This document shows, in pieces, positions 23,891 to 44,545 of a stretch of 64,000 bases of DNA. The first letter of the stretch is position 1, and every line of letters begins with the position of its first letter. The notes under the pieces were generated by a model. That model did no database searches. It worked only from the letters and a program-made list of their open reading frames with translations, and had not been told where the DNA came from. The position numbers and the translations under genes are program-made. This DNA is from Halolamina sp. (GTDB lineage Archaea; Halobacteriota; Halobacteria; Halobacteriales; Haloferacaceae), in assembly GCA_042216705.1 (NCBI GenBank), contig JBDGTQ010000019.1, positions 3,554 to 67,553 on the forward strand, written 5' to 3'.

Positions 23891-25519
23891 ATGACAGAAG
23901 AATGTGAAATCTGCTTTACCCCCGCCCCCGACTGGCAGGCGGACTCGCTGGAGGGGCACATCCGGGAGGTGCACGTGAACGACGAGGCGTCGGTCCGTGC
24001 CATCTACGGCGGGCGATTCGGCCACGTCTTCGACGCGAGCGGGGAGGCGCCGGCGGACGCGGCCGCCGACGACGGCCACGAGGACGAGGACGACGGCGTC
24101 GTCCCCGGCGGGACGACCGACATCCCCGTCGGCGACGACGCCGCGGACGACGACGAGTTGTACGGGCGCAAGTGGTACGCCATTGGCGTCGGGGGCGCCG
24201 GCAACAACATCATCGACGCGATACTGATGCGCCGGGACACGCTGTTGCGCAACGACGAGGACCGCGCACGTATCTGGCGCGGCGGTCTAGCCGGCTACGG
24301 CATCCTCAACACGAACATCGCCGAGCTCGAACAGACGTACTACGCCCGCGAGCTGAAGGAGTACTCCCGCAACGACCTCCTGAGCAACGCCATCATCGGC
24401 ATGGGCGAACACGGCTACAGCGGGATGGGCTACCGCTGGAGCAACGGGGCTGAGGTCGCGGCCACCGACTTCGAGGACGCAGGAAACCCGTTCCGAGACC
24501 GCTGGGACATCAAACAGCAGGACGTCCGCGACGCCCAGGCCATCATGCTCGCACACAGCGTCACCAAGGGAACCGGGTGCGGCTCGACGCCGGTCATCGT
24601 CGACAGGCTCCGCGACGAGGTGCTCAACGACGACGGCGTCATCGGCAAGGCGGTGCTGAGCACGGTCGTCATCCCCTCGGAGGGAGGCAAACAGTCCGAT
24701 ATCGGCGGTCGTGCCAAGAGCAACGGCGTCGTCGGACTCGCCCGGCTCTCGCAGTCGGTCGACGCGGTCATCCCGTTCAACAACGACCACCTCCGCCGTG
24801 CGAGCACGGACATCACGCCGCGAATCGACGCGTTAGAGGAGTACAACCCCCCGGAGTACGCCGATCTCAACAAGCCGCTGGTCGCGTTCTTGGAGGCGTT
24901 CACGATGTCGTCGACCCCGCAGTTCGTCGACCGGGACGCGACGATGACCGTCCGGGGCAGCGTCTTCGACGTGGCCGACAGCTTCCGTCTCGTCGAGGAC
25001 AAGTACCCCTCCGAGATGGACACCGACGAACAGCCGGCGGTGGTGTTGGCTCCGGCGCTCGGTCGGCTCCACTCCGAGGAGATATCCCGGTCGAACCTCG
25101 AACTGCTGGCGCGTAACACGCTGTTGCAGAACAGGCTGGCCGACTTCGACCCGTCGACGGCCTGGGGCGGGAACTTCATGATTTACGGGCCGGCCGAGAA
25201 GATGGAGCGCGTCTCCTCGTTCGTCAACGACGGGACGGTCCAGCGAATCCTCAACGGCGAGGAGTTCCTCGACAGCACCGAGAGCCAGTCCGTGGAGTCC
25301 ATCGACGTTCAGCTCAACCAGATCGTCATCCCGTATCTCGACGACGTGTTCATGTGGGGAACGCTGTGGAACCCGCGGATGCCGGCACTGGAAGAGATGT
25401 ACGAACACACTCGCCAGCTGAAGGAGGAAGGCGGCACCAGACAGGCCGAGAACCTCCGCGAGACCTGGGACGACGTGGAGAAGCTGTTCTCCTGTCTCGG
25501 CCGAGAGAACCTCCTGTAA
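23891..25519 (+). CDS. tubulin/FtsZ-superfamily protein 1 with N-terminal C2H2-like zinc finger
   Basis: 542 aa. CEIC-x14-H-x4-H at aa 5-28, acidic linker, then T1 YAIGVGGAGNNIIDAIL, T3-like GMGEHGYSGMGY, degenerate T4 AHSVTKGTGCGSTPVIVD, VIPFNNDHL, T7-like GSVFDVADSF, all in the canonical order. Confidence 0.8.
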   Translation: MTEECEICFTPAPDWQADSLEGHIREVHVNDEASVRAIYGGRFGHVFDASGEAPADAAADDGHEDEDDGVVPGGTTDIPVGDDAADDDELYGRKWYAIGVGGAGNNIIDAILMRRDTLLRNDEDRARIWRGGLAGYGILNTNIAELEQTYYARELKEYSRNDLLSNAIIGMGEHGYSGMGYRWSNGAEVAATDFEDAGNPFRDRWDIKQQDVRDAQAIMLAHSVTKGTGCGSTPVIVDRLRDEVLNDDGVIGKAVLSTVVIPSEGGKQSDIGGRAKSNGVVGLARLSQSVDAVIPFNNDHLRRASTDITPRIDALEEYNPPEYADLNKPLVAFLEAFTMSSTPQFVDRDATMTVRGSVFDVADSFRLVEDKYPSEMDTDEQPAVVLAPALGRLHSEEISRSNLELLARNTLLQNRLADFDPSTAWGGNFMIYGPAEKMERVSSFVNDGTVQRILNGEEFLDSTESQSVESIDVQLNQIVIPYLDDVFMWGTLWNPRMPALEEMYEHTRQLKEEGGTRQAENLRETWDDVEKLFSCLGRENLL

Positions 25520-25523
25520 GACG

Positions 25524-26984
25524 ATGATCCCGCTACTCACCGTGTTCGGCCTGTTCGGCGGCGACGACGACGACGGCAACGACCTCGCGCGGGTGGCCGA
25601 CAGACTCGGAACGAGGCCGGACCCACGCCGGGTCGAGTCTCGGCTCGACGACCTGGCGGCCGCGGCCGACGAGCTGACGTCGGCCGCCGACGTCTCCGGT
25701 CCGGCCGGCCGCGTGTCGCCGGACGCGACGCCGGTCGAGAAGATCGAGGCGCTGGCGGCGGCCGTCGAAGCCGGGGAGCTCACCGTATCTCGGGAGTCGC
25801 CGACCGGGACTCGGACCGAAGACGGCGCCGTCGCGACCGCCGCGAGTGAGGTGCGCCGGACCGAGCGCCCGGGCGGCGTCGCGGCCGACCTGCTGGAGCG
25901 GCTCGCGGCGGCCCGGACCGTCGACGACGCGGAGCTTCTGAGCAGTCTCCGCGACGCGACCCGACGGCTGGAAACGTGTCGGACCCTCACCGACCGCGTC
26001 GACGAGACGACGACGGCGGCGGAGTACCGACGCCTCGCGGAGCGGTTGGACGCCCGCGACGACGACGTGGCGAGGACGCTCGCCGATGTCGTTGCCGACG
26101 CCGCGGAGAACTCGGATTCGGTCGCCGCCGACGAGCGCGACGAGAGGCTCATGATGGAGCTCCAGCGCGCCCTCGACGCGGTGGCACTCGACCGCCAGGT
26201 CGGCGACGGCGGCGTCGACCCCACGGTGGCGGCCACCGAGCTGGCCGACCACTTGGGGGGTCGAGCGGACGGCGAGAGGCCGACCGCGGCCGCGGCTCGG
26301 GCGGTCCGGCAGTCGGCCAACGCGGGAAGCGCGACTGCGCGACGGCTACTGGGCGACCTCGCTGACGACCGCTCGGGCGGCGACGCCGTCGAGGAGACGC
26401 TGCGAGCGGTCGTTGAGGAGCTCGACGAGGCGGCGACCGTTCGGAGCGTCGTCGGCGACGTGGACCACGACAGCGTCCGCGACCTCGCCGACGACGTCGC
26501 GGCAGCAACCGACAGGCTGGGAGACCCAGAGACCGCCGCGGCGCTCGGAGACCGGGTCGAGCAGCTCCGGCAGACGGTCGACCGCGCCGACGAGTCGAAC
26601 TCCGTCGTCGCTTACGCCGCCCGACGAGAGTTGCGCTTCTACGAGCGCGACCTCCTGCCGAGGCTCGACGGCGTCGACGGGAGTCAGGGGACGACAGACG
26701 ACGGCGCCGACGACGCCGCGGCCGCCGTCGAACGACTCGGGGACCGAACCGAACGCATCCGGGCGGAGTTCATCGAGGGCGTCGCGGACCACAACCACAG
26801 CATCCCGCTGCATTTCCTCTCACTGGTGGAGTCACTGCGTGAGGACGCCGACGACGCGCTGGCCCGAGGGGAGCCGAAACGAGCCGCCGGTTTCGCGGCT
26901 GCGGCGGGGTCGCTGCTCGACCACGTCCGTGACCTGTACGAGCGCAACGAGTACAGCGTGATGCTGCGTCGGCTCCGGGGCTAA
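25524..26984 (+). CDS. hypothetical highly acidic helical protein with short hydrophobic N-terminus
   Basis: 486 aa. Starts 4 nt after the preceding stop. MIPLLTVFGLFGG followed by Asp/Ala/Leu/Arg-rich predicted helices. No motif recognised. Confidence 0.7.
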   Translation: MIPLLTVFGLFGGDDDDGNDLARVADRLGTRPDPRRVESRLDDLAAAADELTSAADVSGPAGRVSPDATPVEKIEALAAAVEAGELTVSRESPTGTRTEDGAVATAASEVRRTERPGGVAADLLERLAAARTVDDAELLSSLRDATRRLETCRTLTDRVDETTTAAEYRRLAERLDARDDDVARTLADVVADAAENSDSVAADERDERLMMELQRALDAVALDRQVGDGGVDPTVAATELADHLGGRADGERPTAAAARAVRQSANAGSATARRLLGDLADDRSGGDAVEETLRAVVEELDEAATVRSVVGDVDHDSVRDLADDVAAATDRLGDPETAAALGDRVEQLRQTVDRADESNSVVAYAARRELRFYERDLLPRLDGVDGSQGTTDDGADDAAAAVERLGDRTERIRAEFIEGVADHNHSIPLHFLSLVESLREDADDALARGEPKRAAGFAAAAGSLLDHVRDLYERNEYSVMLRRLRG

Positions 26985-27137: not shown

Positions 27138-28304
27138 ATGCCATATCTCTTCGTCGGCGCGGGCCAAGCGGGGTGTGCAATCGTCGACGCGGTGTTCGAC
27201 CACCAGCGCATCGCACAGCTCGCGACACCGGTGGCGATAAACTCGACCATCAGGGACCTCCAGAACCTCTCGAACGTTGACCGAGACGCGTGGTACGGAG
27301 TCGCGAGCGGTGAAGGGCTGGTTCCGGGGACCGTCCCTGGCTTCGAGGAACAGGTGACGGGTGGGTTCGGGCGCGATCCGCGAGCGGCGGCCGACGCCGT
27401 CGCCGACGCCGGGCCGGAGCTGCGGGACGCCTTCGCCGAGCAGTACGGCGAGGACGCCCCGCCGTTCGCGTTCGTCTTTCTCGGACTCGGCGGAGGAACC
27501 GGCTGCGGAATCGCGCCGCGGGTCGCCGAGGCGGTCAAGTCCTTCGGGGGGCCGTCGACGGACGTCATCGCAGTCGGCGTGTTGCCGAACACCGCCGGAT
27601 CGACGACCGACGGCGACGATGCGTCCGCGGTTCGCCAGGCCGAGAACACGGTGTACGGGCTCGACCGTCTGGAGGACGCCGTCGACGGCGTCGTGCTCGT
27701 CGACAACCAGCGCCTCGCCTACGAGGACGCCGCGGAAGGACGGTTCAGCGAGTACAACGAGTACGTCGCCGCGGCGATAGTCGACCTCATCTCCGGGCCG
27801 GTGCTCGAACGCATCGACCCGAGTTCCTACGAGGACCTGGACGCGCCAGTCATCGACCTGCAGGACGTGGTGACGTCGCTGACGCTGTCCGACGGCGGCC
27901 CTGGGTACGCGACGCTGGGTCGGTCGGTGACGATGACGAAGTCGATGCTGGGGTATCTGCTCCCGTTCGTCGGCAACGAGACGGTCGACGGGGCGACGCT
28001 GTCACGGCTGGCGGTGAGCAAGCGGAGCGTCGCCGACATCGCACCGGACGATGCGATCAAGGCGATCGGGCAGGTCCGGGCACCGGCGCGATACATCACC
28101 GACGACAGCTACCGCATCGAGGTGTCGATGATACGAGGCCTGCTCGACTCGTACTGCCCCGAGGTGAACATCGGCATGACGCTGACCGAGCGCAACCTGG
28201 CGTCGTTCACGACGCTGTTGACCTTCGAACGTGAAGACGTTTCCCGCATCCAGGAGCTGGAGGAAATCGCCGACCGAGCGACCCGCGCGGAGGCGTCGCC
28301 GTGA
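27138..28304 (+). CDS. tubulin/FtsZ-superfamily protein 2 (CetZ/tubulin-like)
   Basis: 388 aa. T1 LFVGAGQAGCAIVD at aa 4-17, T3-like TGGFGRDPRAAADA, T4 FLGLGGGTGCGIAP (aa 115-127), VVLVDNQRLAYE (compare tubulin DNEAL), T7-like APVIDLQDVVTSL (compare FtsZ NVDFADV). Confidence 0.85.
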   Translation: MPYLFVGAGQAGCAIVDAVFDHQRIAQLATPVAINSTIRDLQNLSNVDRDAWYGVASGEGLVPGTVPGFEEQVTGGFGRDPRAAADAVADAGPELRDAFAEQYGEDAPPFAFVFLGLGGGTGCGIAPRVAEAVKSFGGPSTDVIAVGVLPNTAGSTTDGDDASAVRQAENTVYGLDRLEDAVDGVVLVDNQRLAYEDAAEGRFSEYNEYVAAAIVDLISGPVLERIDPSSYEDLDAPVIDLQDVVTSLTLSDGGPGYATLGRSVTMTKSMLGYLLPFVGNETVDGATLSRLAVSKRSVADIAPDDAIKAIGQVRAPARYITDDSYRIEVSMIRGLLDSYCPEVNIGMTLTERNLASFTTLLTFEREDVSRIQELEEIADRATRAEASP

Positions 28305-28558
28305 CCCGACTGCGGACGCTCCTCACGGGCGCCGTCGTGGTCGTCGGAGCGCTGGCGCTGGCGACGCCGACCGCCGGCGGCGGCCCCGCCACGACGGCCG
28401 AACTCGTCCAGTCGGTCGCGACGACCCACCAGGCCGCGCTCGACGCGCGGCGTCTCGCAGGCGACCCGCTGGTGGCCGTCGCCGGCGGCGCGCTCGGACT
28501 GGGTGCGGGTTTCGTCGGCGGCGGCGTGGTCGCGTACAGCCGTCGGGGGTTGCGATGA
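28301..28558 (+). CDS. small membrane protein (85 aa; N-terminal signal/TM plus C-terminal Gly-rich TM)
   Basis: GTG start overlapping the upstream stop (GTGA), and its stop overlaps the next ATG (ATGA). LLTGAVVVVGALALA and VAVAGGALGLGAGFVGGGVVAY are hydrophobic segments. Confidence 0.6.
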   Translation: MTRLRTLLTGAVVVVGALALATPTAGGGPATTAELVQSVATTHQAALDARRLAGDPLVAVAGGALGLGAGFVGGGVVAYSRRGLR

Positions 28559-29643
28559 CGCCGGCGACGCGACTGCTCGCGGTCGTCGTCACGGTGGCGG
28601 TGCTCGCCGTCACGGGGGTCAGCCAGCCGGTTAGCGGCGCAGCACCGACCGCCAACGAGAGTTCCGTCGGCGTCTCTGCTCCCGACGCACCTTGTGCCGG
28701 CGTCTCCGAGACGCGGCTCGTCGGCTACCTGCCGACGAACGAGCGTGTCGAAAGCGACAGGTCGCTGTACGCCGGTTCGGAAATCGAACTGTTCCTCTGT
28801 CAGAGCGGCGACACCGAGCCGACCACCACGTGGTCGATAACCGGCGCCGACGGCTTCAAGATCGAAACGGAGGGGGAGTCGTCGGTCACAGTCGTCGTCA
28901 CCGCCGCCGACGGTGCGGTGTCGCTCGCCGACCACGTCGAGACCGACTACTCCCTTTCGGGTGCACCGTCGTTCACCCCCGTCTCGGCGTACCGAGCGAC
29001 ATCGGAACTCGGAGACGAGAGCCGAACGCTGACGTTCCCGTCTGCGGAGAGTCGGTCGGCGTTCGTCAGCAACGAGACGGCGTTCCAAAACGAGTTGCGG
29101 GAGCTCGAAACCGTCCGTGAGGAGATCAACTCGACGAACGCGACCGTCGACGGCTCGCTCGGAGCGCTCCCCGAGGACGAACTCGAACGCATCAACGGGA
29201 GCATCGGTCCGAGTGGGAAGCTGGCGACGACCGCCTCCGAACTCAACAGAAGCGCCTTCGCCGCGGTCGACGCCGGCGACGGCGGCGACGCGAGCGCCGT
29301 CATCGAAGCCGCCGGTCAGCGGCAGGCGACCGCCCGTTCGGAGACGGTCGCAGCGCTTCGGGCGTACCGGGAGCGGCTGAGCGACGTTCGTCGCGACGCG
29401 ACGCGCACGGTCCGACTCATGTTCGTGCTTCCGCTGCTCGGTCTGGCGCTCGTCGGCGCCGGCGGCGGATACGCCCTGGGCCGGCGGGTACTCGCCGGAG
29501 TGGAGTACGACCAACAGGTGTCGGCGCGGGAGTTCAGTCTCGCCGACGTCAAACTCCCGCTCGGAATCGGGACGGCGCTTCTGCTCGTCGGCGTCGGCGC
29601 GCTCGCCGTCCTCGGCAGGGCGTTCTTGGGGGTAATCGCATGA
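28555..29643 (+). CDS. secreted, sequon-rich protein anchored by two C-terminal TM helices
   Basis: Internal ATG (MTPATRLLAVVVTVAVLAVTG...) of track ORF 28231..29643. Signal peptide. Sequons NESS, NETA, NSTN, NATV, NGSI, NRSA. C-terminal VRLMFVLPLLGLALVGAGGGYAL and LPLGIGTALLLVGVGALAVLG. Confidence 0.8.
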   Translation: MTPATRLLAVVVTVAVLAVTGVSQPVSGAAPTANESSVGVSAPDAPCAGVSETRLVGYLPTNERVESDRSLYAGSEIELFLCQSGDTEPTTTWSITGADGFKIETEGESSVTVVVTAADGAVSLADHVETDYSLSGAPSFTPVSAYRATSELGDESRTLTFPSAESRSAFVSNETAFQNELRELETVREEINSTNATVDGSLGALPEDELERINGSIGPSGKLATTASELNRSAFAAVDAGDGGDASAVIEAAGQRQATARSETVAALRAYRERLSDVRRDATRTVRLMFVLPLLGLALVGAGGGYALGRRVLAGVEYDQQVSAREFSLADVKLPLGIGTALLLVGVGALAVLGRAFLGVIA

Positions 29644-31718
29644 AACGACAGTGGAGAGCCGCGCTCGGAATCGGTGGCATCGTTCTCGGAACGGCCGTCC
29701 TGGGAGCCGTCGTCTTCCTCTACGTGAGCTCCCGAGTTGGCGTGTTCGTCATCGGCGGGGGCGTCCCACTGGCACTCGTCGCCTCGGTGGCAGTGTACGC
29801 GCGAGGAGTGACGACAAGCACCACCGGCGAGAGCGACTTCGTTCGTCAGGCCGCCCGCGACGCCGCCGAGTCGTTCCGCGAGGCGGTGACGACGACGGAC
29901 CGCCTCATGACGGAGTATCCACGGTGGGACGACGACCGCGTTCAGACCCGCGGCGAGCAACTCGCCCACGACTTCGCCGACGCGGGCGTCGACTTCGACC
30001 TGTCGGCGGCGACGTTCACCGTCGACTCGCCCGAGCGGGTTCAGCAGTTCGACCGCCTCCGGGAGGACGTCGACGACTATCGTGACGTCCGGGACGAATC
30101 CTTCCGTGAGTTCGCACGGACGGAGGTCCAGCGGCTGAACGACCTCGCGGCCGACATCAGCGAGGAGTTCCTCGACGGCGGTGGACCGATGGTCACGGAC
30201 GCCACGGCGGTTCCAGGCACGGGCGACTACGTCGACGTCGAGGCAGTCATCTCGACGACCGAGGACGACGTGAGGGCCGTCGTGAAGTCCGCGCTCGACC
30301 GGCTCGAACGGTCGGTCGGCGAGTACGACGCGAGCGGCGACGCGAGCCACAGGAACGCGAAGAAAGCGCGCGAACGCGCCGACGAGGGTGACTTCGACGG
30401 AGCGGTGTCGGCGCTCCGAGAGAGCGCCGAGGCGGCCAGCGGTGAGGTCGGCGGCTCGTTCGAGGCCGATCGGAAGGCACTCGAACGCCTCCTGCAAACG
30501 GTCGACTCCACAGGCGTCGCCGACCGGGTGTCACGGGAGTACGTCGAGACCGTCGAAGAGGTCCGCGAGACGGTGACCGACCTCGATTCGCCGCTGCAGG
30601 CGACGGAGCTCAACGACGCGGCGGCGACGGCGCGGCAGGCCTGCATCCGGATGGCGGCGGAGCTCGAAGGCGACCTCGCGGCGCACGTCGACAGTATCCG
30701 CGCGGCGGAGATGCCGATGGGGTTCTACACGGCGCCGCCGGCAGTCGGGACGGAGTACGAGTCGACGCTCGCCGCGACCGAGACGCTCACCGCGTTCCGC
30801 CAGGAGTGGCTCGCAGCGGTCGGCGACCTCATGGAGGCCGTGGAGACGGCCGAGCGCAAGGCGGCGGTCGCGGACAGCTATGTTCCCGTCTCCGAGCGAA
30901 TCGGGGAGGAGCTTCGCCGCGACGGACGCGCCGCTGCGGCCGACCTCCCCGTCCACGACCCCGAGCCGTTCCTCGAGCTGTACGCCGAGCAACACGACGA
31001 GGCGGAGTACGACCCGTCGGGGCCGGCAGTCACCGCTCCCGGCGGCGACGAGACGTACGCGCTGACGGTGACCGCGCGGACCGAGGGCAGCATGGGTGCC
31101 AAGGAACGGCTCACCGTCGCTGTCGAGGGGTCCGGATACGACGACGAGCGGACGACGGAGACGTTCGCGGCGGTCGAGGAGACGTTCGAAGACGTCCCCT
31201 ACGGCGACGTCACGGTCACGGCGACCGCCGACCCGGCCGACTTCGGCGACGCCGAGGACTCCGTCCACGTCGACGGCGACCAGACGGTCGAGTTGCTGTT
31301 GCCGGAGCGGAGCCTCCGAGAGCAGGTCTGCGGCGCCGAACTCGACGCTGTACAGTCACAGCTCTCGACGGTCGGCGAGGTGCTCGCAGAGCGCTTCGAC
31401 GAGGAGGAGCATCTCTCGACCGACCAGGAGTTCCCCATCGTAGACGAGTACATCCCCTGTCTGCTGGTCCTCTGGGCGGAGCAGGAGGGACACACCGCCC
31501 GCCGCGACGACGGGAGGGTGCTCGTCTACGACGACGACCAGTTCGGATCTAGATTGGAAACCATCGTGAACCACAACATCACCGACGGCGATTCGATGAC
31601 GTTCGACGAGATGCGAGCGAAGTTTCTCTCGGTGCCGGCCTCGGACGAGCTACTGGCCGACATCGTGACCGATATCGACGGGTCAGTCACCGTGCGTGAC
31701 GGGGAGGTGTACGCCTGA
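29640..31718 (+). CDS. membrane protein (two N-terminal TM) with large acidic soluble domain
   Basis: 692 aa. ATGA overlap upstream, TGATG overlap downstream. AALGIGGIVLGTAVLGAVVFLYV and GVFVIGGGVPLALVASVAVYA, then about 620 acidic aa without recognisable motifs. Confidence 0.8.
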   Translation: MKRQWRAALGIGGIVLGTAVLGAVVFLYVSSRVGVFVIGGGVPLALVASVAVYARGVTTSTTGESDFVRQAARDAAESFREAVTTTDRLMTEYPRWDDDRVQTRGEQLAHDFADAGVDFDLSAATFTVDSPERVQQFDRLREDVDDYRDVRDESFREFARTEVQRLNDLAADISEEFLDGGGPMVTDATAVPGTGDYVDVEAVISTTEDDVRAVVKSALDRLERSVGEYDASGDASHRNAKKARERADEGDFDGAVSALRESAEAASGEVGGSFEADRKALERLLQTVDSTGVADRVSREYVETVEEVRETVTDLDSPLQATELNDAAATARQACIRMAAELEGDLAAHVDSIRAAEMPMGFYTAPPAVGTEYESTLAATETLTAFRQEWLAAVGDLMEAVETAERKAAVADSYVPVSERIGEELRRDGRAAAADLPVHDPEPFLELYAEQHDEAEYDPSGPAVTAPGGDETYALTVTARTEGSMGAKERLTVAVEGSGYDDERTTETFAAVEETFEDVPYGDVTVTATADPADFGDAEDSVHVDGDQTVELLLPERSLREQVCGAELDAVQSQLSTVGEVLAERFDEEEHLSTDQEFPIVDEYIPCLLVLWAEQEGHTARRDDGRVLVYDDDQFGSRLETIVNHNITDGDSMTFDEMRAKFLSVPASDELLADIVTDIDGSVTVRDGEVYA

Positions 31719-32920
31719 TGGCCCGAGCTGACACCTACACGCGCTGGGGCATCGTCGCCGCCGGCGAGGGCGGCGGCCGCATCGCCGCCGAGTTCTTCGC
31801 CCGCAGCGACAACCCGGGAATCGACGACCGCATCGTCCTGTTGAACACGAACCGCGCCGACATTCGTAACACCATCGAGCAGGCCAACATCGAGGACTCG
31901 CTGGACGAGTACACGACGGTCTTCGGGTCGAAACGCGGCGTCGGCAACTCGTTCCTCGCCGGCGAGGAGTGCGCCAGGGAGGGCCTCGACGACATCGCTA
32001 GACAGATCGACGACAGAGCGCCCGACGCCGACGCGTTCCTCCACACGACGACGCTGGGCGGCGGCACGGGCAACGGCACCATCCCGTATCTGATGCGACA
32101 GTTCGACGCCGGGTCGGAGATGGAGACGCGACGGCCCTGGATGGACAGCGCGGTCCACATCGCTCTGGCGGCGTGGCCGTACTACGACGAGCCGGCTCAC
32201 AGACAGTTCAACGCCATCTGCGGTCTCTCCCGACTCCTCCGCCGGCGCGACGGCGAACAGAACGCCGACATGGTGTTGCTGGCGGCGAACTCCCACCTCG
32301 ACGAGAGCGGTGCTGCCGACAGCTACGACGCGGTCAACAGGCGGATTCTTTCGGCCATCGACCTGCTCATCAGCGCCGGTCGAGAGGCCCACGGCGTCGT
32401 CGACGTCGAAGATTACGTCGCCAAGCCGTCGGAAATCGGGGCGTATCACTTCACCCCGGCGGTCGGCGAGGGGCTGAACGCGAAGATGCTCGAGTTCGAA
32501 CTCCTGTTCGACCGCGCCGCCGAGAACGCGTTCGTTCCGATGGACGTGGGGACTTCGCGGGCAGCCTACGCCATCGTACGCGCTCCCGAGAGGCTGATCG
32601 ACAGCGGCGAGGTGACCACGAACGACGTCAAGAGCGCGTTCAACGACTGGAAGCGCAAGCACGGGCTGGGTGCGGCGGTCGGCATGTCCACGCTGGCCCC
32701 CAAAGACGACCGCAGCAACGACGTCGACGTGTTGTTACTGCTCGGCGGCTTCGATCTGAACCCCCTGTTGGAGCACGCGCGGGGGCGGTTCGAGGAGCAC
32801 AAGGAGAACCTCGAAACGGCCAGACAGCTCGGCACCCAGGCCGAGTCCGCGGTTTCGGAGGCGTACCTCGCCGACCTCGAGGACAACCTCCAGACGTACG
32901 TCGACTTGAACGCGAGGTGA
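31718..32920 (+). CDS. tubulin/FtsZ-superfamily protein 3
   Basis: 400 aa. T1 WGIVAAGEGGGRIAAEF, T3-like FGSKRGVGNSFLAGEE, T4 FLHTTTLGGGTGNGTIPYL, MVLLAANSHL, T7-like HGVVDVEDYV, in canonical order. Confidence 0.8.
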   Translation: MARADTYTRWGIVAAGEGGGRIAAEFFARSDNPGIDDRIVLLNTNRADIRNTIEQANIEDSLDEYTTVFGSKRGVGNSFLAGEECAREGLDDIARQIDDRAPDADAFLHTTTLGGGTGNGTIPYLMRQFDAGSEMETRRPWMDSAVHIALAAWPYYDEPAHRQFNAICGLSRLLRRRDGEQNADMVLLAANSHLDESGAADSYDAVNRRILSAIDLLISAGREAHGVVDVEDYVAKPSEIGAYHFTPAVGEGLNAKMLEFELLFDRAAENAFVPMDVGTSRAAYAIVRAPERLIDSGEVTTNDVKSAFNDWKRKHGLGAAVGMSTLAPKDDRSNDVDVLLLLGGFDLNPLLEHARGRFEEHKENLETARQLGTQAESAVSEAYLADLEDNLQTYVDLNAR

Positions 32921-32926
32921 CCGCGC

Positions 32927-35740
32927 GTGAGAGCCAGCACACCACGACTGCCCGCGGCGGTGACGGCGGCTCTCGTCGCCGCCGTCGTCGCCGGCGCCGC
33001 GATGGGAGGTGCCGTGACGACCCTCGCCGGCGTCGCTCCCGCGAGCGCCACCTCGGCGACGGCTCAGGCCGACGGCGACGTCCGACAGGCGGCCAACGGT
33101 GACCTGGTCGTGGAACTCGACGCCAGCGAGGTGAACGAGAGCAACGCAGTCACCATCGCCGTCGCCGACCAGACGTACGAGCGGCCGGGGTCGGGGAACC
33201 AGACGCTCACGTACACGGTCGCAGCCGGCGAGCTCCCGGACGGCGGCGTCGCGGACACGAACGTGACTGTCACTCAGGACGGGGACCGACTGGCGACGGC
33301 GACGCTCGACCTGCGGTACCTCCGTCTGAGCGACGGCCCGCGGTTTGACGACCGAGGGCGACTGGTGCTCAACGTCGACCGGAGCGTCGGCGTCGCGGGT
33401 GCAACAGTCAACCTGACGGTAACCGGCAACGGCGCGACCGAGCAGGTCCCGGTCGACGTTGGCGCTGACGGGTCGACGGTCCGGCTGGCCCGGACGCAGT
33501 CGTTCGTCGAGACGGCGTTGCTCCCTCCGACGTCGATAACGGTGGGTGATGCCGACGGCGGAGCGACCGTCCCGAACGAGGTCACGGTACCCATCCCAGA
33601 GACGGTGTCGTCGGGGACAACCGTCAGCGTCGTCGGCGACACGGTCGTCGTGGAAAGTCCGCTGCTCGTCGGGGGGGCGGAGTACGACGTGACGGTGCAG
33701 ACGACGGAGCCGAGCGGTGAGTACCAGGACCGTGCGACCGCCGGACAGCCGGATAACGGAATCGCACGACTGACCGTGGAGAACGGAGAGGTCACTGCGG
33801 CCAGCGAACTCACGGCGAGCGTGACGTACCGCGGTACGGACGTCACGTCGGCGACCGCGACGACGACCACCGCTCCGCTGTCGGCCACGCTGGAATATAA
33901 CGGATCCGGCGATAACGCGACGGTGATCAACGTCTCGGGGATGGGCGACGTCGGAACGGTCGAGAAGGTGCTCCTCAAGACAGCTAACGACGTCTACGCC
34001 GTCAACGAGGTGAATCGAGACGGGAGTCTGCTCCGCTTCCCGAATCTGTCGGTCACCTCGGGGCGGTACGAACTCGCTGTGATAGGCGCCGACGGGACGG
34101 CTCGGCTCACCGTCGGCGAGGGAGCACTCGGCGAGGTCGGCGGAGACGAAGCGATATCGTCGGGGAGCGACTCGGGCGTCGGCCGCTCATCCGGCACGTC
34201 GCTGTCGCCGCGGAACGTTCTCGTCGTGCTGGTGGCGCTTGTTCTCGGCGGTGGTGGCGTGTACGCCTTGCTCTCCGTGGCACCTGGAGGGTCGGGCGGA
34301 CGACGCAGGTCACGACGGGCCGGCGGCGCTCGGACCGCCTCGGTGCAGGTGACGGTCCGGGACGAACAGACCGGCCACCCGGTCGACGGGGGCCGCGTCG
34401 TCGCCCGGAAGGCGGGGCGCAACGAGTTCAATACCGAGGGGCCGGCTGCGTCGGCCGAACTCGTCGACGGGACGGCCGACCTCACGCTCGAACCCGGCCC
34501 CAGCTACAGGGTCGAAGCTCAGTACGGCGGCACGACCGCCGTCGAGCGGGTCGAAAATCTCGCGAGCGACCGCCAGTTGTCGATTTCGTTGCCGCCACTG
34601 CGGACGCAGTTGTCCGTCGTCGACGACCGCAGCGAGCCGGTGACCGAGGCGGACGTGTCGTTGACGGGCGCCGACGTGTCGGGCGAGCGTGCCGTCCGGG
34701 ACGATGGCACCATTCAGCTGAAGCTGTCGCCGGTGCAACGCGACATCACTCTCACGGTCGAACACGACCGCCTGACCGACGAGACGGTCCACGTGGACGA
34801 GCCCGCGGACCTGCCGAGCAGAGTCGTGCTCGGCGTCCCGACCGGGTCGGTGACGGCGTCGCTGTCGATAGACGGCGAGGCGACCGACTGCGGGCGGATC
34901 GAGCTCGAACCTGCCGAAGGGTGGTTACGCGACCGCGTCGACGTCGAGTACGCCGAGGTCTCCGACGGGGAGGTCAGCTTCGAGAGCCTCCCGGCCGGGG
35001 CGTACGAGGTGACCACCGCCGTCGGGGGCGAACAGTTCGACACGGCGACGGAGACGGTGCGCGTCCAGAACGGGGGTCGCGCTCGGGCACGGCTGGACGT
35101 CAGCTTCGAGTACGACCTCTCGGCCGACCAGCGGAACCGACTCGCGGAACTGCAGACGGCCGCGGACGACCTCGTGCCGACGAGTCAGCTCGACGGGGCC
35201 GTCCACCGCTACTACGCCAGCGTCGTTCGGTCGCTGGTGAGCGAAATCGAGCGGGTGCCGCGGCTCGGCGCGCGCTTCGCCGGCGCGGACGTCGGCCCCG
35301 ACGAGACCGTCGAGGCGCTGCTGTGGGCCGGCGAGTCGCTGCTGGACATCATCGACCCGGCGCTGAACACGAAGCACAACGTCGACCTCTTCAGCGCGTG
35401 TGCGAACATGCGCCAGGCGGACATCCGCTGGGAAAGTGGTTACGAGCTCGACTCGTTCTTCGAGTTGGCCGCGGCCGACCGCGGCGAACAGCGGTCCCGG
35501 CTGCGGGCGGCGCTGTCCGAGGCCGAGTCGACGGTCGAGGCGGAGCGGTCGGAGGTGACCGTCGCCTCCCCGGCCCGGGCCGTCATGGACGAGCTTCAGT
35601 CGCACGTTCAGGACACGCGGGAGTCCGACGAGGTCCGCCACGCGGCGCTGACCGTCGTCGTCGTCGGCCTGGCCGACGCGGTGGAAACGCTGTTCGACCA
35701 TCCGGAACTCCGGGACCGACTCAACAGGACGGTGTACTGA
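32927..35740 (+). CDS. large bitopic envelope protein: signal peptide, about 420-aa sequon-rich ectodomain, one TM, about 490-aa cytoplasmic domain
   Basis: 937 aa, GTG start. Signal AAVTAALVAAVVAGAAMGGAV. Sequons NESN, NQTL, NVTV, NLTV, NGSG, NATV, NVSG, NLSV all precede the TM VLVVLVALVLGGGGVYALLSV, which is followed by RRRSRRAGGAR (positive-inside). Then beta-sandwich-like repeats (VQVTVRDEQTGHPVDGGRVVA...) and a helical tail. Confidence 0.85.
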   Translation: MRASTPRLPAAVTAALVAAVVAGAAMGGAVTTLAGVAPASATSATAQADGDVRQAANGDLVVELDASEVNESNAVTIAVADQTYERPGSGNQTLTYTVAAGELPDGGVADTNVTVTQDGDRLATATLDLRYLRLSDGPRFDDRGRLVLNVDRSVGVAGATVNLTVTGNGATEQVPVDVGADGSTVRLARTQSFVETALLPPTSITVGDADGGATVPNEVTVPIPETVSSGTTVSVVGDTVVVESPLLVGGAEYDVTVQTTEPSGEYQDRATAGQPDNGIARLTVENGEVTAASELTASVTYRGTDVTSATATTTTAPLSATLEYNGSGDNATVINVSGMGDVGTVEKVLLKTANDVYAVNEVNRDGSLLRFPNLSVTSGRYELAVIGADGTARLTVGEGALGEVGGDEAISSGSDSGVGRSSGTSLSPRNVLVVLVALVLGGGGVYALLSVAPGGSGGRRRSRRAGGARTASVQVTVRDEQTGHPVDGGRVVARKAGRNEFNTEGPAASAELVDGTADLTLEPGPSYRVEAQYGGTTAVERVENLASDRQLSISLPPLRTQLSVVDDRSEPVTEADVSLTGADVSGERAVRDDGTIQLKLSPVQRDITLTVEHDRLTDETVHVDEPADLPSRVVLGVPTGSVTASLSIDGEATDCGRIELEPAEGWLRDRVDVEYAEVSDGEVSFESLPAGAYEVTTAVGGEQFDTATETVRVQNGGRARARLDVSFEYDLSADQRNRLAELQTAADDLVPTSQLDGAVHRYYASVVRSLVSEIERVPRLGARFAGADVGPDETVEALLWAGESLLDIIDPALNTKHNVDLFSACANMRQADIRWESGYELDSFFELAAADRGEQRSRLRAALSEAESTVEAERSEVTVASPARAVMDELQSHVQDTRESDEVRHAALTVVVVGLADAVETLFDHPELRDRLNRTVY

Positions 35741-35742
35741 TC

Positions 35743-36789
35743 ATGGTCCCGACAGACGCACGCGTCGCGGTGGGTGCGGTCGTCGCCCTCGTGTTGACGA
35801 CGACGGTCGCGTCGGGCGCGGTCGCCGGAGCAGCGACGGCGACGACGGCGACGGCGACGACGGCAGTCCCGCCGCCGACGGCGGACGAACTGCTCACGCG
35901 GCTCCAGTCCTTCGAGGAGGAGCCGGCGCTGAGCGAGTACAGCGAGTTGGAGGTGATGCGGAGTCAGGCGGTTTCGACGGTACAGGTCGGCAACGCATCC
36001 CTCGCCGAGCGACGCCGTATCGCCGGCATCGTGACGGTGCTCTCGGAGTTCGTCGAGGCGTACGAGCTGGCCGCCGCCGGCGACCGCATCGAGAGCCTCG
36101 AAGCGGCGAACGAGACGCAGACGGCCATCGACTCGGTGAGGGAAGCGGGCGGCGACCAGTACGCGCGACTGGCGCAGGTGGCTCTGGAGCGGTTCTATCG
36201 CGACCAGGGAGACGAGCTCTACCAGCGCGGACAGGAGTCCACGAACACCACGGCGAAGCTCGAACTGTACGGCGCCGCACGTGAGGCGTACGAGGCCGGC
36301 GGTGCTGACCGACGGCTCGCGGAGATAACGGTGGTTTCCCAGGAGCTCCGAGCCGAGTTCGCCGTCGACAGCCGACGGTTGTCGGGGGCGCTGGCGAACG
36401 CCTCGGCGTTCGTCGCCGACTGTGGCGACGGCTGTGACGGTCCGCTCGCCGCGCTCGCCGCGCTCGGACCGAACGTCTTCGCCGCCTACACCGACGCCCG
36501 TCGCGCCCACGCCGCCGCTCGACAGGCCCAGCGCCTGTCGGACAAACACGGCCTGACCGCCCGCTCCGAGCGCGCCGCGACGCTGGTCGACGAGTCCGGG
36601 ACGGCGCTCGGCAGCTTCGCGGTCGCGAGCGTCCTCCTCGCGCTCGGCTACGGCGGTGCCGTTGCTCTCGTCGGTGCCGTCGTGAGCCACCGGCTCGCAA
36701 CGTGGGCGCTCGAAGTCGAGGGCGCACGAGTCGGACGCATCGTCCCACAGGCGACCGTCGAAGTCGAGCCGGAGGTGACCGAGTCGTGA
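35743..36789 (+). CDS. secreted helical protein with C-terminal TM anchor
   Basis: Internal ATG (MVPTDARVAVGAVVALVLTTTVASGAVAG...) 3 nt after the upstream stop. Sequons NASL, NETQ, NTTA, NASA. C-terminal FAVASVLLALGYGGAVALVGAVV. Confidence 0.75.
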   Translation: MVPTDARVAVGAVVALVLTTTVASGAVAGAATATTATATTAVPPPTADELLTRLQSFEEEPALSEYSELEVMRSQAVSTVQVGNASLAERRRIAGIVTVLSEFVEAYELAAAGDRIESLEAANETQTAIDSVREAGGDQYARLAQVALERFYRDQGDELYQRGQESTNTTAKLELYGAAREAYEAGGADRRLAEITVVSQELRAEFAVDSRRLSGALANASAFVADCGDGCDGPLAALAALGPNVFAAYTDARRAHAAARQAQRLSDKHGLTARSERAATLVDESGTALGSFAVASVLLALGYGGAVALVGAVVSHRLATWALEVEGARVGRIVPQATVEVEPEVTES

Positions 36790-39500
36790 GGGGGCGCCGT
36801 CCGCTCGCGGCGCTGGCGATGGTCGCGCTGCTGGTCGCGGGGGCATCGACGGGCGCCGTCGCCGCGTCCGGGAGCGTCGAACTCGACGCCGCGCTGTCGG
36901 AGCAATCGAAGACCGACGAGCTGACGTTCACTTTCACCCCGTCACAGGACGCGACCGTCACCGCCACCGACCGCATCGAGCGCGCGAACGGTAACGTCAC
37001 GTTCGCGTTCGACGAGTGGGAGCGGACCGACGGCCAGGGGTCGGGGACGAACAACAGCTGGGATGTCGTCGCCGGCGTCGAGTACCGAGTGACGTACGTC
37101 GCCACCGCACGGTCCGGCGCCGCCGAGGACACCTACTTCGGGACGGCGGAGGTCACCGCCAGCGACGGGTCGTTGGTGGCCGACGAGTCGCTGTCGCTGC
37201 AGGTCGACGTGTTGTATCCGCAGTTCGGCTTCGTCGACAGGCAGTCCACCGAGGTCGTGTTCGACGACGCGGACCTGCAATCGGCTTCGAGCCAGGTGTC
37301 GTTTCCGGTGCCGAACTCCGGCCAGGGGGTGATGAAGCCGACGGACGTCTCGGTGAGCAACCTCCCTCAGGGGTTCACCGTCGCCTCGACGGCGCTGCCC
37401 GACACCGTCTCGCCCGGCAGCGAGGGCGAAGGGACCGTCGAACTCGCCGTCGACGACGACGTCAACGAGGGAACATATAGCTTCGACGTGACGGTGACGG
37501 ACTCGCTGGGCAACCAGCGGTCGTTCGCCGTCGACGCCACGGTTTCGAAGCCGCCGATCGCCGACGTCTCCGACACGGAGGCGAACCTCGGCGACGTGCT
37601 CGTCGGGCAGACGAGCCGGAAGACGTTCAGCGTCTCCGAGACGGCCGGATTCGAGGGTCTGAGCGGCGTCACCGTCGACGACTCGTCGGCGGAGCAGGAC
37701 GCCACGCTCGACTTCGAAGGACTGTCGCGGGTGTCGACGCAGCCGAGCGGCTCCGACACCGCGACGGCAGTCGTCGACGTCAGCAGCGACGCGAGACAAC
37801 ACGAGACGCTGTCGTGGACGGTGCAGCTCAGCGGCGAGGCGCCCGACTCGCCGACGCGGCAGGTCGAGTTCGAGGCGCGGGTCATCTATCCGGCGCGACT
37901 GGGCACCGTCGAGGCGTCGTCGACGACGCTTCCTTTCGACGAGCCCCGCGACCAGGTGTCGGCTCAGGACGGGTCGACGACGGTCAGCGTCGAGAACACC
38001 GGGGACCTGGAGATGGACGTCACGGGCGTCGACGTGACGATGCAGAGCGGAAGCCAGGACATCTCCGCCAGGGCCGTCGACGTGCCCGACACGGTGGCCG
38101 GACTCTCCAGCCAGAACGTGACGATACGGTACCGCGCCGACGCGGACACTCCCGAGGGGAGTTACGACGCGGTGGTGACGGTCAGGACGGCCGACGCCGG
38201 GACGCAGACCGTCGAAACCACCGTCGAGGTGACCCAATCGGCCGAGCTCGTCGTCGACGACCGAATGCAGTTCGGCGAGGTGACGATAACCAGCAACCAG
38301 ACCCGGTCCGCAGACGTCGCCGAGCGACTCGGCTACGAGGACGTGACCGGGCTGACGGTCGAGGTGGTATCGGGGCCCGAAGAGTGGCTGACGCTGGTCC
38401 AGCAGCCGCCATCGCGCCTCGACGCCGGGACGGAGTCGTCGCTGGTCGCCGCCGTCCGCTTCGACACCGAGGCCGAACTGTACACGGAGTACACCTGGAC
38501 CATCCGGGTCGACGGCGAGGACGTCGAGCCTCAGACCGTCACCATCTCCGCGACGGCGAAGCCCTACTCCTTCGACCGCGTCACGGAGCCGCTCGGGGAG
38601 TACTCCGACCGAGGCGACTGGCGGGCGGAGACGGCCAGCGGTACGCTCTCGGCGCTTTCGACGCTCGAATCCGATCTCCGCGGCGACGGATCGGTCGCCG
38701 ACGGCGACCTCTCGTCGGCGCTGGCGGCCGGCCGCGCGACGCTACTGTTCATCGAATCCATCGAGGACGCCCGTACCGCCCAAGAGGACGGGGAGTACGC
38801 CGGCGCCCAGGAGAACCTCACCCGAGCGGCGGCAGCCAGGGATCTGCTGGTGCAGTACGTAGACGCGATTCAGTCCGATGAGGTCCGCTCGGCGGCGCGG
38901 GAGTCGCTCCAGGCCGCGAACGCGTCGCTGTCGGAAAGCGTCGCCGCGCAGCGCGGCCACTACCAGGACGTTCTCGCGGACGACCCGAGCGCGTTCGAAC
39001 GGGCCAGGGCCCACCGCGCTCTGGCCAGGCTCGCGACCATCACCGGCGACGAGACGACCGCGAGCGAACACCGCGAGCAGTACGAGGCCGCCTCCGACCG
39101 GTACGTGACGCTGGTGCAGAACGCTTCGACCGCCCGCGCCGAGGCCGGCAGCGCCTGGACCGCCTACCGAGCGGAGGCGACGCTGGTGGTCGCCGGCTAT
39201 CCGCTCGTCCTCAACCCCGCCAGGCTCGACACCACGCTGGCGCGAACGAGCCGAGTGAATCGGCTTTATGCCGAGGCCGAGACGATGTACGCCGAGGCGG
39301 GCGCGACCGCAGAGGCTGAGGCGGTGAACCAGCGCGCCGCGACGGTGTCGAGCCGAGCGACCGTATCGCGGTACGTTCTGTACGGGACGACGGGCGCCTA
39401 CGGCATTGGGTTCCTCGCCGTCGTCGCCAGACTGTCGCTGAACGCCTACGCGTTCGTCCAGGACACGGCCGCGGCCGCGACCGGCGACTTCCTCCGCTGA
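36786..39500 (+). CDS. large secreted sequon-rich surface protein (Ig/CARDB-like repeats plus helical region) with C-terminal TM anchor
   Basis: GTG at 36786 overlapping the upstream stop (GTGA); alternative ATG at 36819. Signal LAALAMVALLVAGASTGAVAASG. Repeated beta-rich modules (VELAVDDDVNEGTYSFDVTVTD, TVSVENTGDLEMDVTGVDV, YDAVVTVRT). Sequons NVTF, NNSW, NQTR, NVTI, NLTR, NASL, NAST. C-terminal GAYGIGFLAVVARLSL. Confidence 0.8.
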   Translation: MRGRRPLAALAMVALLVAGASTGAVAASGSVELDAALSEQSKTDELTFTFTPSQDATVTATDRIERANGNVTFAFDEWERTDGQGSGTNNSWDVVAGVEYRVTYVATARSGAAEDTYFGTAEVTASDGSLVADESLSLQVDVLYPQFGFVDRQSTEVVFDDADLQSASSQVSFPVPNSGQGVMKPTDVSVSNLPQGFTVASTALPDTVSPGSEGEGTVELAVDDDVNEGTYSFDVTVTDSLGNQRSFAVDATVSKPPIADVSDTEANLGDVLVGQTSRKTFSVSETAGFEGLSGVTVDDSSAEQDATLDFEGLSRVSTQPSGSDTATAVVDVSSDARQHETLSWTVQLSGEAPDSPTRQVEFEARVIYPARLGTVEASSTTLPFDEPRDQVSAQDGSTTVSVENTGDLEMDVTGVDVTMQSGSQDISARAVDVPDTVAGLSSQNVTIRYRADADTPEGSYDAVVTVRTADAGTQTVETTVEVTQSAELVVDDRMQFGEVTITSNQTRSADVAERLGYEDVTGLTVEVVSGPEEWLTLVQQPPSRLDAGTESSLVAAVRFDTEAELYTEYTWTIRVDGEDVEPQTVTISATAKPYSFDRVTEPLGEYSDRGDWRAETASGTLSALSTLESDLRGDGSVADGDLSSALAAGRATLLFIESIEDARTAQEDGEYAGAQENLTRAAAARDLLVQYVDAIQSDEVRSAARESLQAANASLSESVAAQRGHYQDVLADDPSAFERARAHRALARLATITGDETTASEHREQYEAASDRYVTLVQNASTARAEAGSAWTAYRAEATLVVAGYPLVLNPARLDTTLARTSRVNRLYAEAETMYAEAGATAEAEAVNQRAATVSSRATVSRYVLYGTTGAYGIGFLAVVARLSLNAYAFVQDTAAAATGDFLR

Positions 39501-43916: not shown

Positions 43917-44545
43917 GATTCGGTTGTCTGAATGACTCGTTTGAGGAACGATTCGACGCGGTCGTAGTCGGCATCGACCAACCCGTCGGGCGGGTACAAC
44001 CACAGCATCTCGGCGGTCAACCTGTCGAGGACGCCGGCGAACGTCGCGAACGCCTCGGCGATGTCGCCGAACGTCGCCGGGAGATGCTCCCCGGCGACGA
44101 GGTCGAGTCGCCGTCGGAGGCGCCGGCACTCCCCTGCGAGCTCGCGGAGCCGCTCGCTCGTCCACGGGAGCACGACGTACCAGTTCGCGGTCGTCGGGCC
44201 GTCCCGGCGGAGGGGCACGATCAACGACCCCGTCGGACGGTCACAGCGGTCGTCCTGACACGCGCGGTCAACCGCCTCTGCGACGGCGTCGGTCGGGGCG
44301 CGGTCGTCGTACCGCGCGTCGAGGATCTGCCTCACCGCGAGGTCGGCCGCGTCGGTCGGCTGTGACTCCAGTCGCGGCGGCGGGCCGATGCCGGCCGTCA
44401 GCGTTCCCAACTCCCACAGCACGTCCGTGAGGCGCTGGGCTCGCTTCCACGCCGCATCCTGGTCGCCCAGCCGGCGCCGCTCGTGAAGCACGCTCAGTTC
44501 CTCCCGGAGGACACGAACCCTGTCGGTCCACGAAGCGGCGTACAT
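43913..44545 (-). CDS. hypothetical protein (210 aa)
   Basis: ATG start. Its stop overlaps the AAA ATPase start (ATGA). Normal composition, no recognisable motif. Confidence 0.65.
   Translation of the reverse strand: MYAASWTDRVRVLREELSVLHERRRLGDQDAAWKRAQRLTDVLWELGTLTAGIGPPPRLESQPTDAADLAVRQILDARYDDRAPTDAVAEAVDRACQDDRCDRPTGSLIVPLRRDGPTTANWYVVLPWTSERLRELAGECRRLRRRLDLVAGEHLPATFGDIAEAFATFAGVLDRLTAEMLWLYPPDGLVDADYDRVESFLKRVIQTTES

Follow-up and report, generated by a model that had tools for sequence, protein, structure and literature searches.

What does a tubulin-like protein do when its gene lies between the genes of two membrane proteins? The question is raised by a locus of the haloarchaeon Halolamina sp. 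(assembly GCA_042216705.1), studied here in a stretch of 64,000 nucleotides of contig JBDGTQ010000019.1 (positions 3,554 to 67,553, forward strand). This whole stretch is referred to as the window, and all coordinates are counted from its first letter. The gene in question is called TubG; this name is our own, as are TubD and TubB for the two further tubulin-like genes of the locus and the single letters used for the other genes of the surrounding island. In the archaeal tubulin superfamily, FtsZ1 and FtsZ2 drive cell division, while the CetZ proteins act in cell shape and motility. The identity of TubG as a tubulin-like GTPase is secure and its GTPase activity is predicted from sequence and model. 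We consider it on balance probable that TubG is a GTP-dependent filament former that is held at the membrane by the neighboring proteins F and/or H, within an envelope-spanning machine encoded by the island. The sequence family, the predicted fold, the conservation of catalytic residues, the gene order and distribution, and the topology of the neighbors (from hydrophobicity, charge and sequons) were computed; polymerization, binding to F or H, the role of an AAA+ ATPase and the cellular function are what we infer.

TubG is a conserved gene of the tubulin/FtsZ superfamily

The gene is placed as follows.

31718 to 32920, + strand: TubG, a 400-residue cytoplasmic GTPase of the tubulin/FtsZ superfamily, starting with ATG.

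The first-pass annotation of this DNA had read four motifs in the 400-residue open reading frame (ORF), and all four are present in the translation: the T1 stretch AAGEGGGRIAAEF (residues 14-26), the T4 stretch TLGGGTGNGTIPYL (residues 112-125), LLAANSHL (residues 187-194) and VVDVEDYV (residues 227-234). Its description of the two junctions is equally accurate. The ATG of TubG shares a base with the stop codon of the upstream gene F, the A of the TGA being the A of the ATG (...cgcc TGATG gcc), and the 937-residue ORF downstream, H, begins with a GTG at 32927, 6 nucleotides after the TubG stop codon that ends at 32920.

The window has a G + C content of approximately 70%, at which many long spurious ORFs occur, and its closest relatives in the homologue search are Halobaculum species. 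Moreover, one island copy each in Halolamina salina and Halobaculum halobium appears to be broken. The probability that TubG itself is only a chance ORF, or else a pseudogene in decay, is nevertheless negligible. This explanation is refuted by the 256 homologues found at E ≤ 1e-3 (among the best 120 of the 256, full-length identity is 48-76% throughout), by the 60 invariant columns in an alignment of 54 haloarchaeal homologues, by a G + C content at third codon positions (GC3) of 0.90 on the TubG strand, and by the confidently predicted fold. A long overlapping antisense ORF fails the GC3 filter. TubG is thus confirmed as a real and well-conserved gene, far beyond chance.

Membership of the tubulin/FtsZ superfamily, as proposed in the first-pass annotation, is borne out by both profile and fold. 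TubG scores 37.6 bits with the Pfam Tubulin family (PF00091; E = 3.6e-9), above the gathering cut-off of 33, and with the single sequence as query its best solved relatives are Haloferax CetZ1 (PDB: 4B46, E = 4e-8) and CetZ2 (PDB: 4B45). A family profile built from the alignment of the 54 haloarchaeal homologues matches, among PDB sequences, CetZ1 at 2.7e-13 and CetZ2 at 3.6e-10; the matches after CetZ1 also include phage TubZ (PDB: 4XCQ, 2.7e-8), a Methanosaeta CetZ, Methanocaldococcus jannaschii FtsZ and gamma-tubulin. The same alignment was fed to AlphaFold2, which yielded a model with an N-terminal GTPase domain and a C-terminal domain at a predicted local distance difference test score (pLDDT) of 88.5 and a predicted template modeling score (pTM) of 0.90. 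This model ends in two long helices (residues 348-370 and 381-399). A Foldseek search of the PDB with the model gives a probability of 1.00 and E values of about 1e-17 to gamma-tubulin, CetZ2, CetZ1 and alpha/beta-tubulin, with alignments to tubulins, CetZ and FtsZ that span 350-470 columns. By E value gamma-tubulin is the best structural match, with CetZ2 essentially tied. The query-normalized similarity (TMq) is 0.67-0.76 to CetZ, gamma-tubulin, alpha/beta-tubulin and OdinTubulin, the top value of 0.76 belonging to OdinTubulin, and viral tubulin structures fit worse than cellular ones (TMq 0.50-0.67). The first-pass annotation had named a prediction without such a fold as an outcome that would tell against it; a tubulin fold is what the prediction returns with confidence.

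The residues expected of an active member are in place. T1 reads GEGGG at residues 16-20, and T4 reads GGGTGNG at residues 114-120 with an N replacing the classical S or A; T6 is represented by N165 and T7 by D229 and D232. Residues G16, G18, G114-G118, G120, N165, D229 and D232 are invariant in all 54 haloarchaeal sequences (54/54). In a set of 68 sequences that includes those of Methanoperedens and of anaerobic methanotrophic (ANME-2) archaea, each of these positions is kept in 66-68 sequences, the T1 and T4 residues in 68/68, and D229 and D232 in 66/68. The last helix, EAYLADLEDNLQTYVDLNAR, is acidic and on direct reading does not resemble an amphipathic membrane anchor. It contains Y394, which is invariant in the same set (68/68), and this combination fits a partner-binding surface on TubG.

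Relation to known tubulin-like systems

Among solved structures, CetZ is the best match of TubG in sequence and also the best by target-length-normalized similarity (TMt 0.79-0.82). Both are cytoplasmic proteins that occur in Halobacteria, and they share loop lengths around T5/T6. However, TubG is only 20-23% identical to CetZ, has the two long C-terminal helices and ends in an acidic C-terminus without an obvious membrane-targeting tail. Its neighborhood is wholly different from that reported for cetZ1 and cetZ2 (PMC9856176), with F, H and other island genes in every haloarchaeal locus examined. Brown and Duggin (2023) placed this group outside CetZ, and their Table S1 counts three non-canonical tubulin-superfamily proteins in Halobacterium (Hbt.) salinarum R1, which were left unanalyzed. 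These are presumably the trio encoded on plasmid pHS2. Orthologues of TubG are annotated as 'FtsZ family protein, noncanonical', and those of Hbt. salinarum and N. moolapensis are 52-53% identical to TubG over the full length and stand in the same gene order. The 'Halo.Tub' and CetZ-like groups of Santana-Molina et al. (2023; PMC9871819) concern the same locus, with the Halo.Tub sequences corresponding to the TubB paralogue. The motif string of TubG was not found in the accessible part of the supplementary text of that study, and the paper is silent on function, on how the operon is built, on core versus accessory genes and on membrane partners (PMC9871819). A literature search, with most subscription journals outside its reach, found no functional or operon study of the cluster. 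The TubG family is thus already catalogued, as noncanonical FtsZ or non-canonical tubulin-superfamily proteins, and is functionally uncharacterized.

In structure, the highest query-normalized similarity is to gamma-tubulin, BtubA/B and OdinTubulin (TMq 0.71-0.76). TubG shares with the eukaryotic-type tubulins a long pair of C-terminal helices at the position of H11 and H12 and, in the family consensus, a T3 of the GAGN type. On the other hand, the identity to these proteins is only 13-17%, the family profile reaches them at E values of about 1e-5 to 1e-4, no gene for a heterodimer partner adjoins TubG, and Pfam Tubulin_C gives no match in TubG at E ≤ 0.1. In alpha-tubulin the T7 loop reads D-x-x-E. 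TubG differs from it in having D-x-x-D, as in FtsZ.

Finally, the FtsZl1 systems (Makarova and Koonin 2010; PMC2875224) resemble this locus in that a divergent tubulin-like GTPase is encoded together with membrane proteins, and they have been proposed to act in membrane remodeling. FtsZl1 is devoid of T6, H7, T7 and a full C-terminal domain (PMC2875224), all of which TubG retains, and there are no vWA or OmpA genes near TubG. TubG has no match to Pfam Tubulin_2 (PF13809) either. The FtsZl1 and FtsZl2 families (PMC2875224) were rejected as being different proteins.

Membrane proteins encoded on either side of TubG

The two genes that enclose TubG are the following.

29640 to 31718, + strand: F, 692 residues, with two N-terminal transmembrane segments and a cytoplasmic part of about 640 residues.
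32927 to 35740, + strand: H, a 937-residue bitopic protein with a GTG start.

The position of TubG between membrane protein genes, noted in the first-pass annotation, is evident from the two transmembrane segments of F and from the hydrophobic segment and the transmembrane segment of H, and the reading frames overlap or abut. This spacing is conserved. The distance from the F stop to the TubG start is at most 14 nucleotides in 35 of 41 loci, with an overlap in 13, and that from the TubG stop to the H start is at most 9 nucleotides in 35 of 37. Outside ANME-2, F is the most constant neighbor of TubG. Such tight and conserved spacing fits a single transcript and translational coupling. The further claim that the synthesis of TubG is stoichiometrically tied to membrane components was overstated, as coupling is compatible with the sequence but sets no ratio.

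The topology of F follows from hydrophobicity, its two N-terminal segments preceding the long cytoplasmic part. The model of F, built from an alignment of 6 sequences, consists of long helices with a single beta-sandwich and a pair of small alpha/beta modules; it is confident locally (pLDDT 82) but poor in the global arrangement (pTM 0.48). Foldseek searches of the PDB with this model returned weak beta-sandwich matches only, none of them at E ≤ 0.001. The two alpha/beta modules (residues 559-691) show a winged-helix-like order of helices and strands in the model, which no structural match confirms. H starts with an N-terminal hydrophobic segment and a sequon-rich, extracellular half of about 400 residues, followed by a transmembrane segment (residues 431-449) and the stretch GGSGGRRRSRR. 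The density of N-glycosylation sequons is 2.0 per 100 residues between residues 27 and 430 and 0.2 per 100 residues between 450 and 937. The cytoplasmic half of H, of about 490 residues, contains transthyretin/CnaB-like beta-sandwich repeats, and matches of the H and F profiles among PDB sequences are limited to repeats of this kind. The best-conserved part of H is a C-terminal helical domain of about 190 residues. By hydrophobicity and sequons, the island proteins E, I and J are also surface-protein-like and carry membrane anchors.

With TubG so tightly coupled to both membrane protein genes and so far in sequence from the characterized polymers (20-23% identity to CetZ), it might act as a non-polymerizing GTPase switch or regulator in a membrane complex with F and H. 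We regard this as unlikely, since the acidic pair of T7, which is relevant only at a subunit-subunit interface, is invariant, and a complete two-domain fold is predicted for TubG. In addition, nearly all characterized members of the tubulin/FtsZ superfamily polymerize.

Three tubulin-like paralogues in one locus

Two further tubulin-like genes lie upstream of TubG.

27138 to 28304, + strand: TubD (paralogue 2), 388 residues, with T4 GGGTGCG, T7 D240/D243 and a Pfam Tubulin score of 48.9 bits.
23891 to 25519, + strand: TubB (paralogue 1), 542 residues, with T4 KGTGCG, T7 D360/D363 and a Pfam Tubulin score of 48.9 bits.

That TubG is one of three tubulin-like paralogues in a single locus, as the first-pass annotation held, is supported by the Pfam matches and by profile-profile comparison with hhalign. 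The latter gives homology over both domains with probabilities of 97.9% for TubG and TubD (E = 6e-13), 97.9% for TubD and TubB (E = 4e-13) and 95.1% for TubG and TubB (E = 3e-8), and it aligns D229 and D232 of TubG with the D-x-x-D residues of the other two. The description of TubG as the most divergent of the three holds by Pfam score and pairwise BLASTP, but not by profile searches against solved structures. In the latter, TubD reaches CetZ (PDB: 3ZID) at 5e-18 and TubG reaches CetZ1 at 3e-13, while TubB, with no match in the PDB at 1e-4, is the outlier. Which paralogue appears most divergent by sequence thus depends on the measure. The N-terminus of TubB (23891-23980) carries C5, C8, H23 and H28, a zinc-finger-like CxxC...HxxxxH motif that is invariant in 19/19 orthologues and is joined to the tubulin domain by an acidic linker.

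The presence of three paralogues had suggested a likeness to alpha/beta/gamma-tubulin specialization or to BtubA/B pairs, in which case the three proteins might co-assemble as a heteropolymer with divided roles, and TubG might serve as a nucleator or as an obligate partner of the others without forming filaments by itself. A conserved locus that holds all three genes (about 31 loci, and the same five plasmids, carry TubB, TubD and TubG), the mutual homology over both domains, and the position of gamma-tubulin as the top structural match of TubG by E value, albeit essentially tied with CetZ2, are all in its favor. However, the paralogue genes are separated by one to three others, unlike the adjacent btubA and btubB, and TubG, TubD and TubB alike keep the full GTP pocket and a T7 loop of the D-x-x-D type, so that there is no sign of a non-hydrolyzing partner. 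Furthermore, clusters with TubD and TubG and without TubB occur in Halolamina, Halobellus and Methanoperedens, TubG occurs alone and strongly conserved in ANME-2, and the sequence likeness to true tubulins is weak (13-17% identity; profile E about 1e-5). The comparison with alpha/beta/gamma-tubulin or BtubA/B is consequently not supported: an assembly of this type is disfavored, and we judge it, together with the obligate-partner role for TubG, to be rather improbable.

Layout of the island

TubG is part of an island of 16 genes (positions 21937-46826, about 25 kb) that is rich in membrane and surface protein genes and is flanked by unrelated genes for a histidine kinase and an amidohydrolase. 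Eleven genes follow one another on the + strand in the order A, TubB, C, TubD, sm, E, F, TubG, H, I, J, and the - strand carries K, the AAA+ ATPase, M, N and O. The genes not listed above are the following.

21937 to 23829, + strand: A, 630 residues, with four N-terminal transmembrane segments and an acidic coiled-coil cytoplasmic domain; first gene of the operon.
25524 to 26984, + strand: C, 486 residues, acidic and soluble, between TubB and TubD; no family match.
28301 to 28558, + strand: sm, 85 residues, with two hydrophobic segments.
About 28552 to 29643, + strand: E, with a signal or anchor and C-terminal transmembrane segments; its ectodomain is rich in sequons.
About 35743 to 36789, + strand: I, a surface protein with a C-terminal transmembrane segment.
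About 36780 to 39500, + strand: J, an Ig-like/choice-of-anchor-D surface protein.
39517 to 42315, - strand: K, 932 residues, converging on the + strand operon.
42312 to 43916, - strand: AAA+ ATPase, single-domain and classical, with a likely start (MSSFNL) at 43916.
43913 to 44545, - strand: M, soluble; no family match.
44557 to 45573, - strand: N, soluble and very acidic; no family match.
45576 to about 46700, - strand: O, soluble; no family match.

Small and medium ORFs orthologous to sm and E are annotated in other genomes. The window proteins K, M, N and O gave no family match, and orthologues of K give weak matches to PQQ-like beta-propeller and CARDB-like domains. BLASTP revealed no internal paralogy between accessory proteins such as A, C, F and H. 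The mechanically assigned ORF starts of the AAA+ ATPase (44165), O (46826), I (35707) and J (36702) are likely too early, and the extra N-terminal stretches they add are arginine-rich and look non-coding. Orthologue lengths and spacing point to better starts near 43916 (an ATGA overlap with the stop codon of M), 46700, 35743 and 36780, respectively.

Counted from its MSSFNL start, the AAA+ ATPase has a single classical AAA domain behind an N-terminal region of about 210 residues, and it scores about equally to the D2 domain of Cdc48/VCP and to CdvC/Vps4. CdvC/Vps4 is a filament disassemblase.

Distribution in Archaea

The census of the locus took one genome per species and returned 68 loci, which were classified by tblastn and hidden Markov model searches. 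About 31 haloarchaeal loci, which represent at least 12 genera, have the full three-tubulin operon of the + strand, with differing flanks and often on megaplasmids, and K and the AAA+ gene are present wherever the fetched flank of full-operon loci reached them. The + strand order recurs, with different flanks in each case, on plasmid pHS2 of Hbt. salinarum R1, on the chromosome of N. moolapensis, in Halobiforma lacisalsi and on a plasmid of Halobaculum roseum. Plasmid pHS2 has the accession NC_010369, and its TubG orthologue is OE_RS12040. The order of M, N and O is likewise kept on Hbt. salinarum pHS2 and on the Halobaculum roseum plasmid, the two loci with long enough flanks. In Halolamina salina and a Halobellus species, the island is found without A-TubB-C. 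A core of I, J, TubD, F, TubG and H is present in Methanoperedens, in Ca. Pyrohabitans and in a few metagenome-assembled genomes (MAGs). TubG alone is found in about 24 MAGs of ANME-2 archaea (Methanogaster and relatives), where it is 86-98% identical between MAGs. This strong conservation of a solo TubG suggests an autonomous filament former, with F and H as lineage-specific adaptors.

Within the cluster, F-TubG-H is retained most widely, and TubB is accessory. The first-pass annotation had named absence of the gene from otherwise conserved clusters as an outcome that would tell against it; as far as examined, TubB is the gene missing in some clusters, although a census anchored on TubG could not reveal clusters without it. 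The sole check independent of this anchoring concerns five plasmids, each of which holds TubB, TubD and TubG.

The genomic setting bears on a further explanation, namely that TubG forms a TubZ/PhuZ-like filament for the segregation of its megaplasmid or island. The island is indeed megaplasmid-borne in Hbt. salinarum, three Halobaculum species and two Natrinema strains, and the TubG profile matches phage TubZ (4XCQ) at 2.7e-8. However, there are many chromosomal copies (among others in N. moolapensis, Halopenitus and Halobiforma), and the ANME-2 copies are chromosomal and stand beside cdhC. The neighbors of TubG encode large membrane proteins, and no small TubR-like DNA-binding gene adjoins it. 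TubG also has no PHROGs match, and viral tubulins fit its model less well (TMq 0.50-0.67). A role in DNA segregation is therefore very improbable. Two further candidates were rejected. As an anti-phage defense system the island found no support, PADLOC matching a generic AAA domain only, and a viral or prophage origin was dismissed because PHROGs likewise matched only a generic AAA domain and viral tubulins are poorer structural matches than cellular ones.

Several loci deserve separate mention. The solo ANME-2 proteins (loci L040-L061 and L069-L071 of the census) are about 37% identical to the window protein, and their genes stand divergently next to cdhC, encoding the beta subunit of carbon monoxide dehydrogenase/acetyl-CoA synthase (CODH/ACS), in nearly all MAGs. 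In Methanoperedens (L072, 15040-18192), a 1050-residue protein with the S-layer domain PF07752 (Methanosarcinales) and a CarboxypepD_reg domain is encoded directly after the core, and a PF07752 protein is encoded 2.7 kb upstream of the solo TubG in L051. On plasmid NZ_CP126159.1 of Halobaculum halobium, the entire island is present twice, at about 0-29 kb and at 413-442 kb (L075 and L076). Both copies include flanking nos/ABC genes, and a number of the proteins share one accession between the copies. In one copy, TubB and TubD each consist of two ORFs; the TubG annotated in the other has 374 residues and starts 74 nucleotides after F. In Halolamina salina (L030, 7489-13917), F is found in two ORFs and H in three, and A-TubB-C are missing from the upstream side; the copy is either decaying or affected by sequencing errors. 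Halobellus ordinarius and H. marinus (L066 and L068) carry a divergent TubG-like gene (36% identity), and the 10 kb to each side of it contain no other gene of the island.

A proposed mechanism

In the mechanism we favor, TubG would be a cytoplasmic, assembly-activated GTPase of a CetZ-like, 'non-canonical' branch of the superfamily. Judging from the behavior of its relatives, it would form head-to-tail polymers with GTP, each subunit using its T7 loop (D229, D232) to complete the active site of its neighbor. As TubG has no membrane-targeting sequence of its own, it may depend on the cytoplasmic domains of F and/or H to keep it at the inner face of the membrane. F, with its membrane hairpin and large cytoplasmic domain, and H would be made together with TubG from one tightly packed haloarchaeal operon, and they could couple TubG filaments to the glycosylated surface proteins, that is, the ectodomain of H, E, I and J. 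TubD and TubB probably act likewise with their own neighbors, and the AAA+ ATPase probably remodels or dismantles the assembly. The 16-gene island would then encode an envelope-spanning cytoskeletal machine that organizes or reshapes the cell surface.

Several points weigh against this mechanism. Polymerization and the contact with F and H are steps that we infer, and the conservation of T7 is expected in any active member and is no proof of filaments. The model of F gave no informative structural match in the PDB with Foldseek. In ANME-2, TubG occurs without F or H nearby, so that neither can be an obligatory partner for the whole family. The patchy and partly plasmid-borne distribution of the island implies that it is dispensable for basic growth and shape, and the cellular function proposed is a guess from domain content.

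A bolder version of the mechanism, which we put forward only tentatively, is that of an undescribed envelope-spanning machine which grew stepwise within Halobacterota and has up to three different tubulin-like filaments, each with transmembrane adaptors of its own that bear glycosylated surface domains, and a dedicated AAA+ remodeler. Such growth might have led from a solo TubG, as in ANME-2, through the TubD-F-TubG-H-I-J core of Methanoperedens to the 16-gene island of haloarchaea. If true, this would be a prokaryotic case in which tubulin-type filaments are linked mechanically to the cell surface across the membrane.

Implications for the archaeal tubulin superfamily

The 'non-canonical' haloarchaeal proteins of the tubulin superfamily had previously only been counted. 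What is new here is the conserved island, its core-versus-accessory structure, the solo form in ANME-2 and the candidate transmembrane partners. TubG is a bona fide member with an intact catalytic set, and it is the most widely kept element of the block. The presence of the island on pHS2 of the tractable Hbt. salinarum R1 makes its function directly testable. If filaments of TubG do reach surface proteins through dedicated transmembrane adaptors, this would represent a new mode of envelope action for prokaryotic tubulin relatives and would add a further data point on the diversification of tubulin paralogues.

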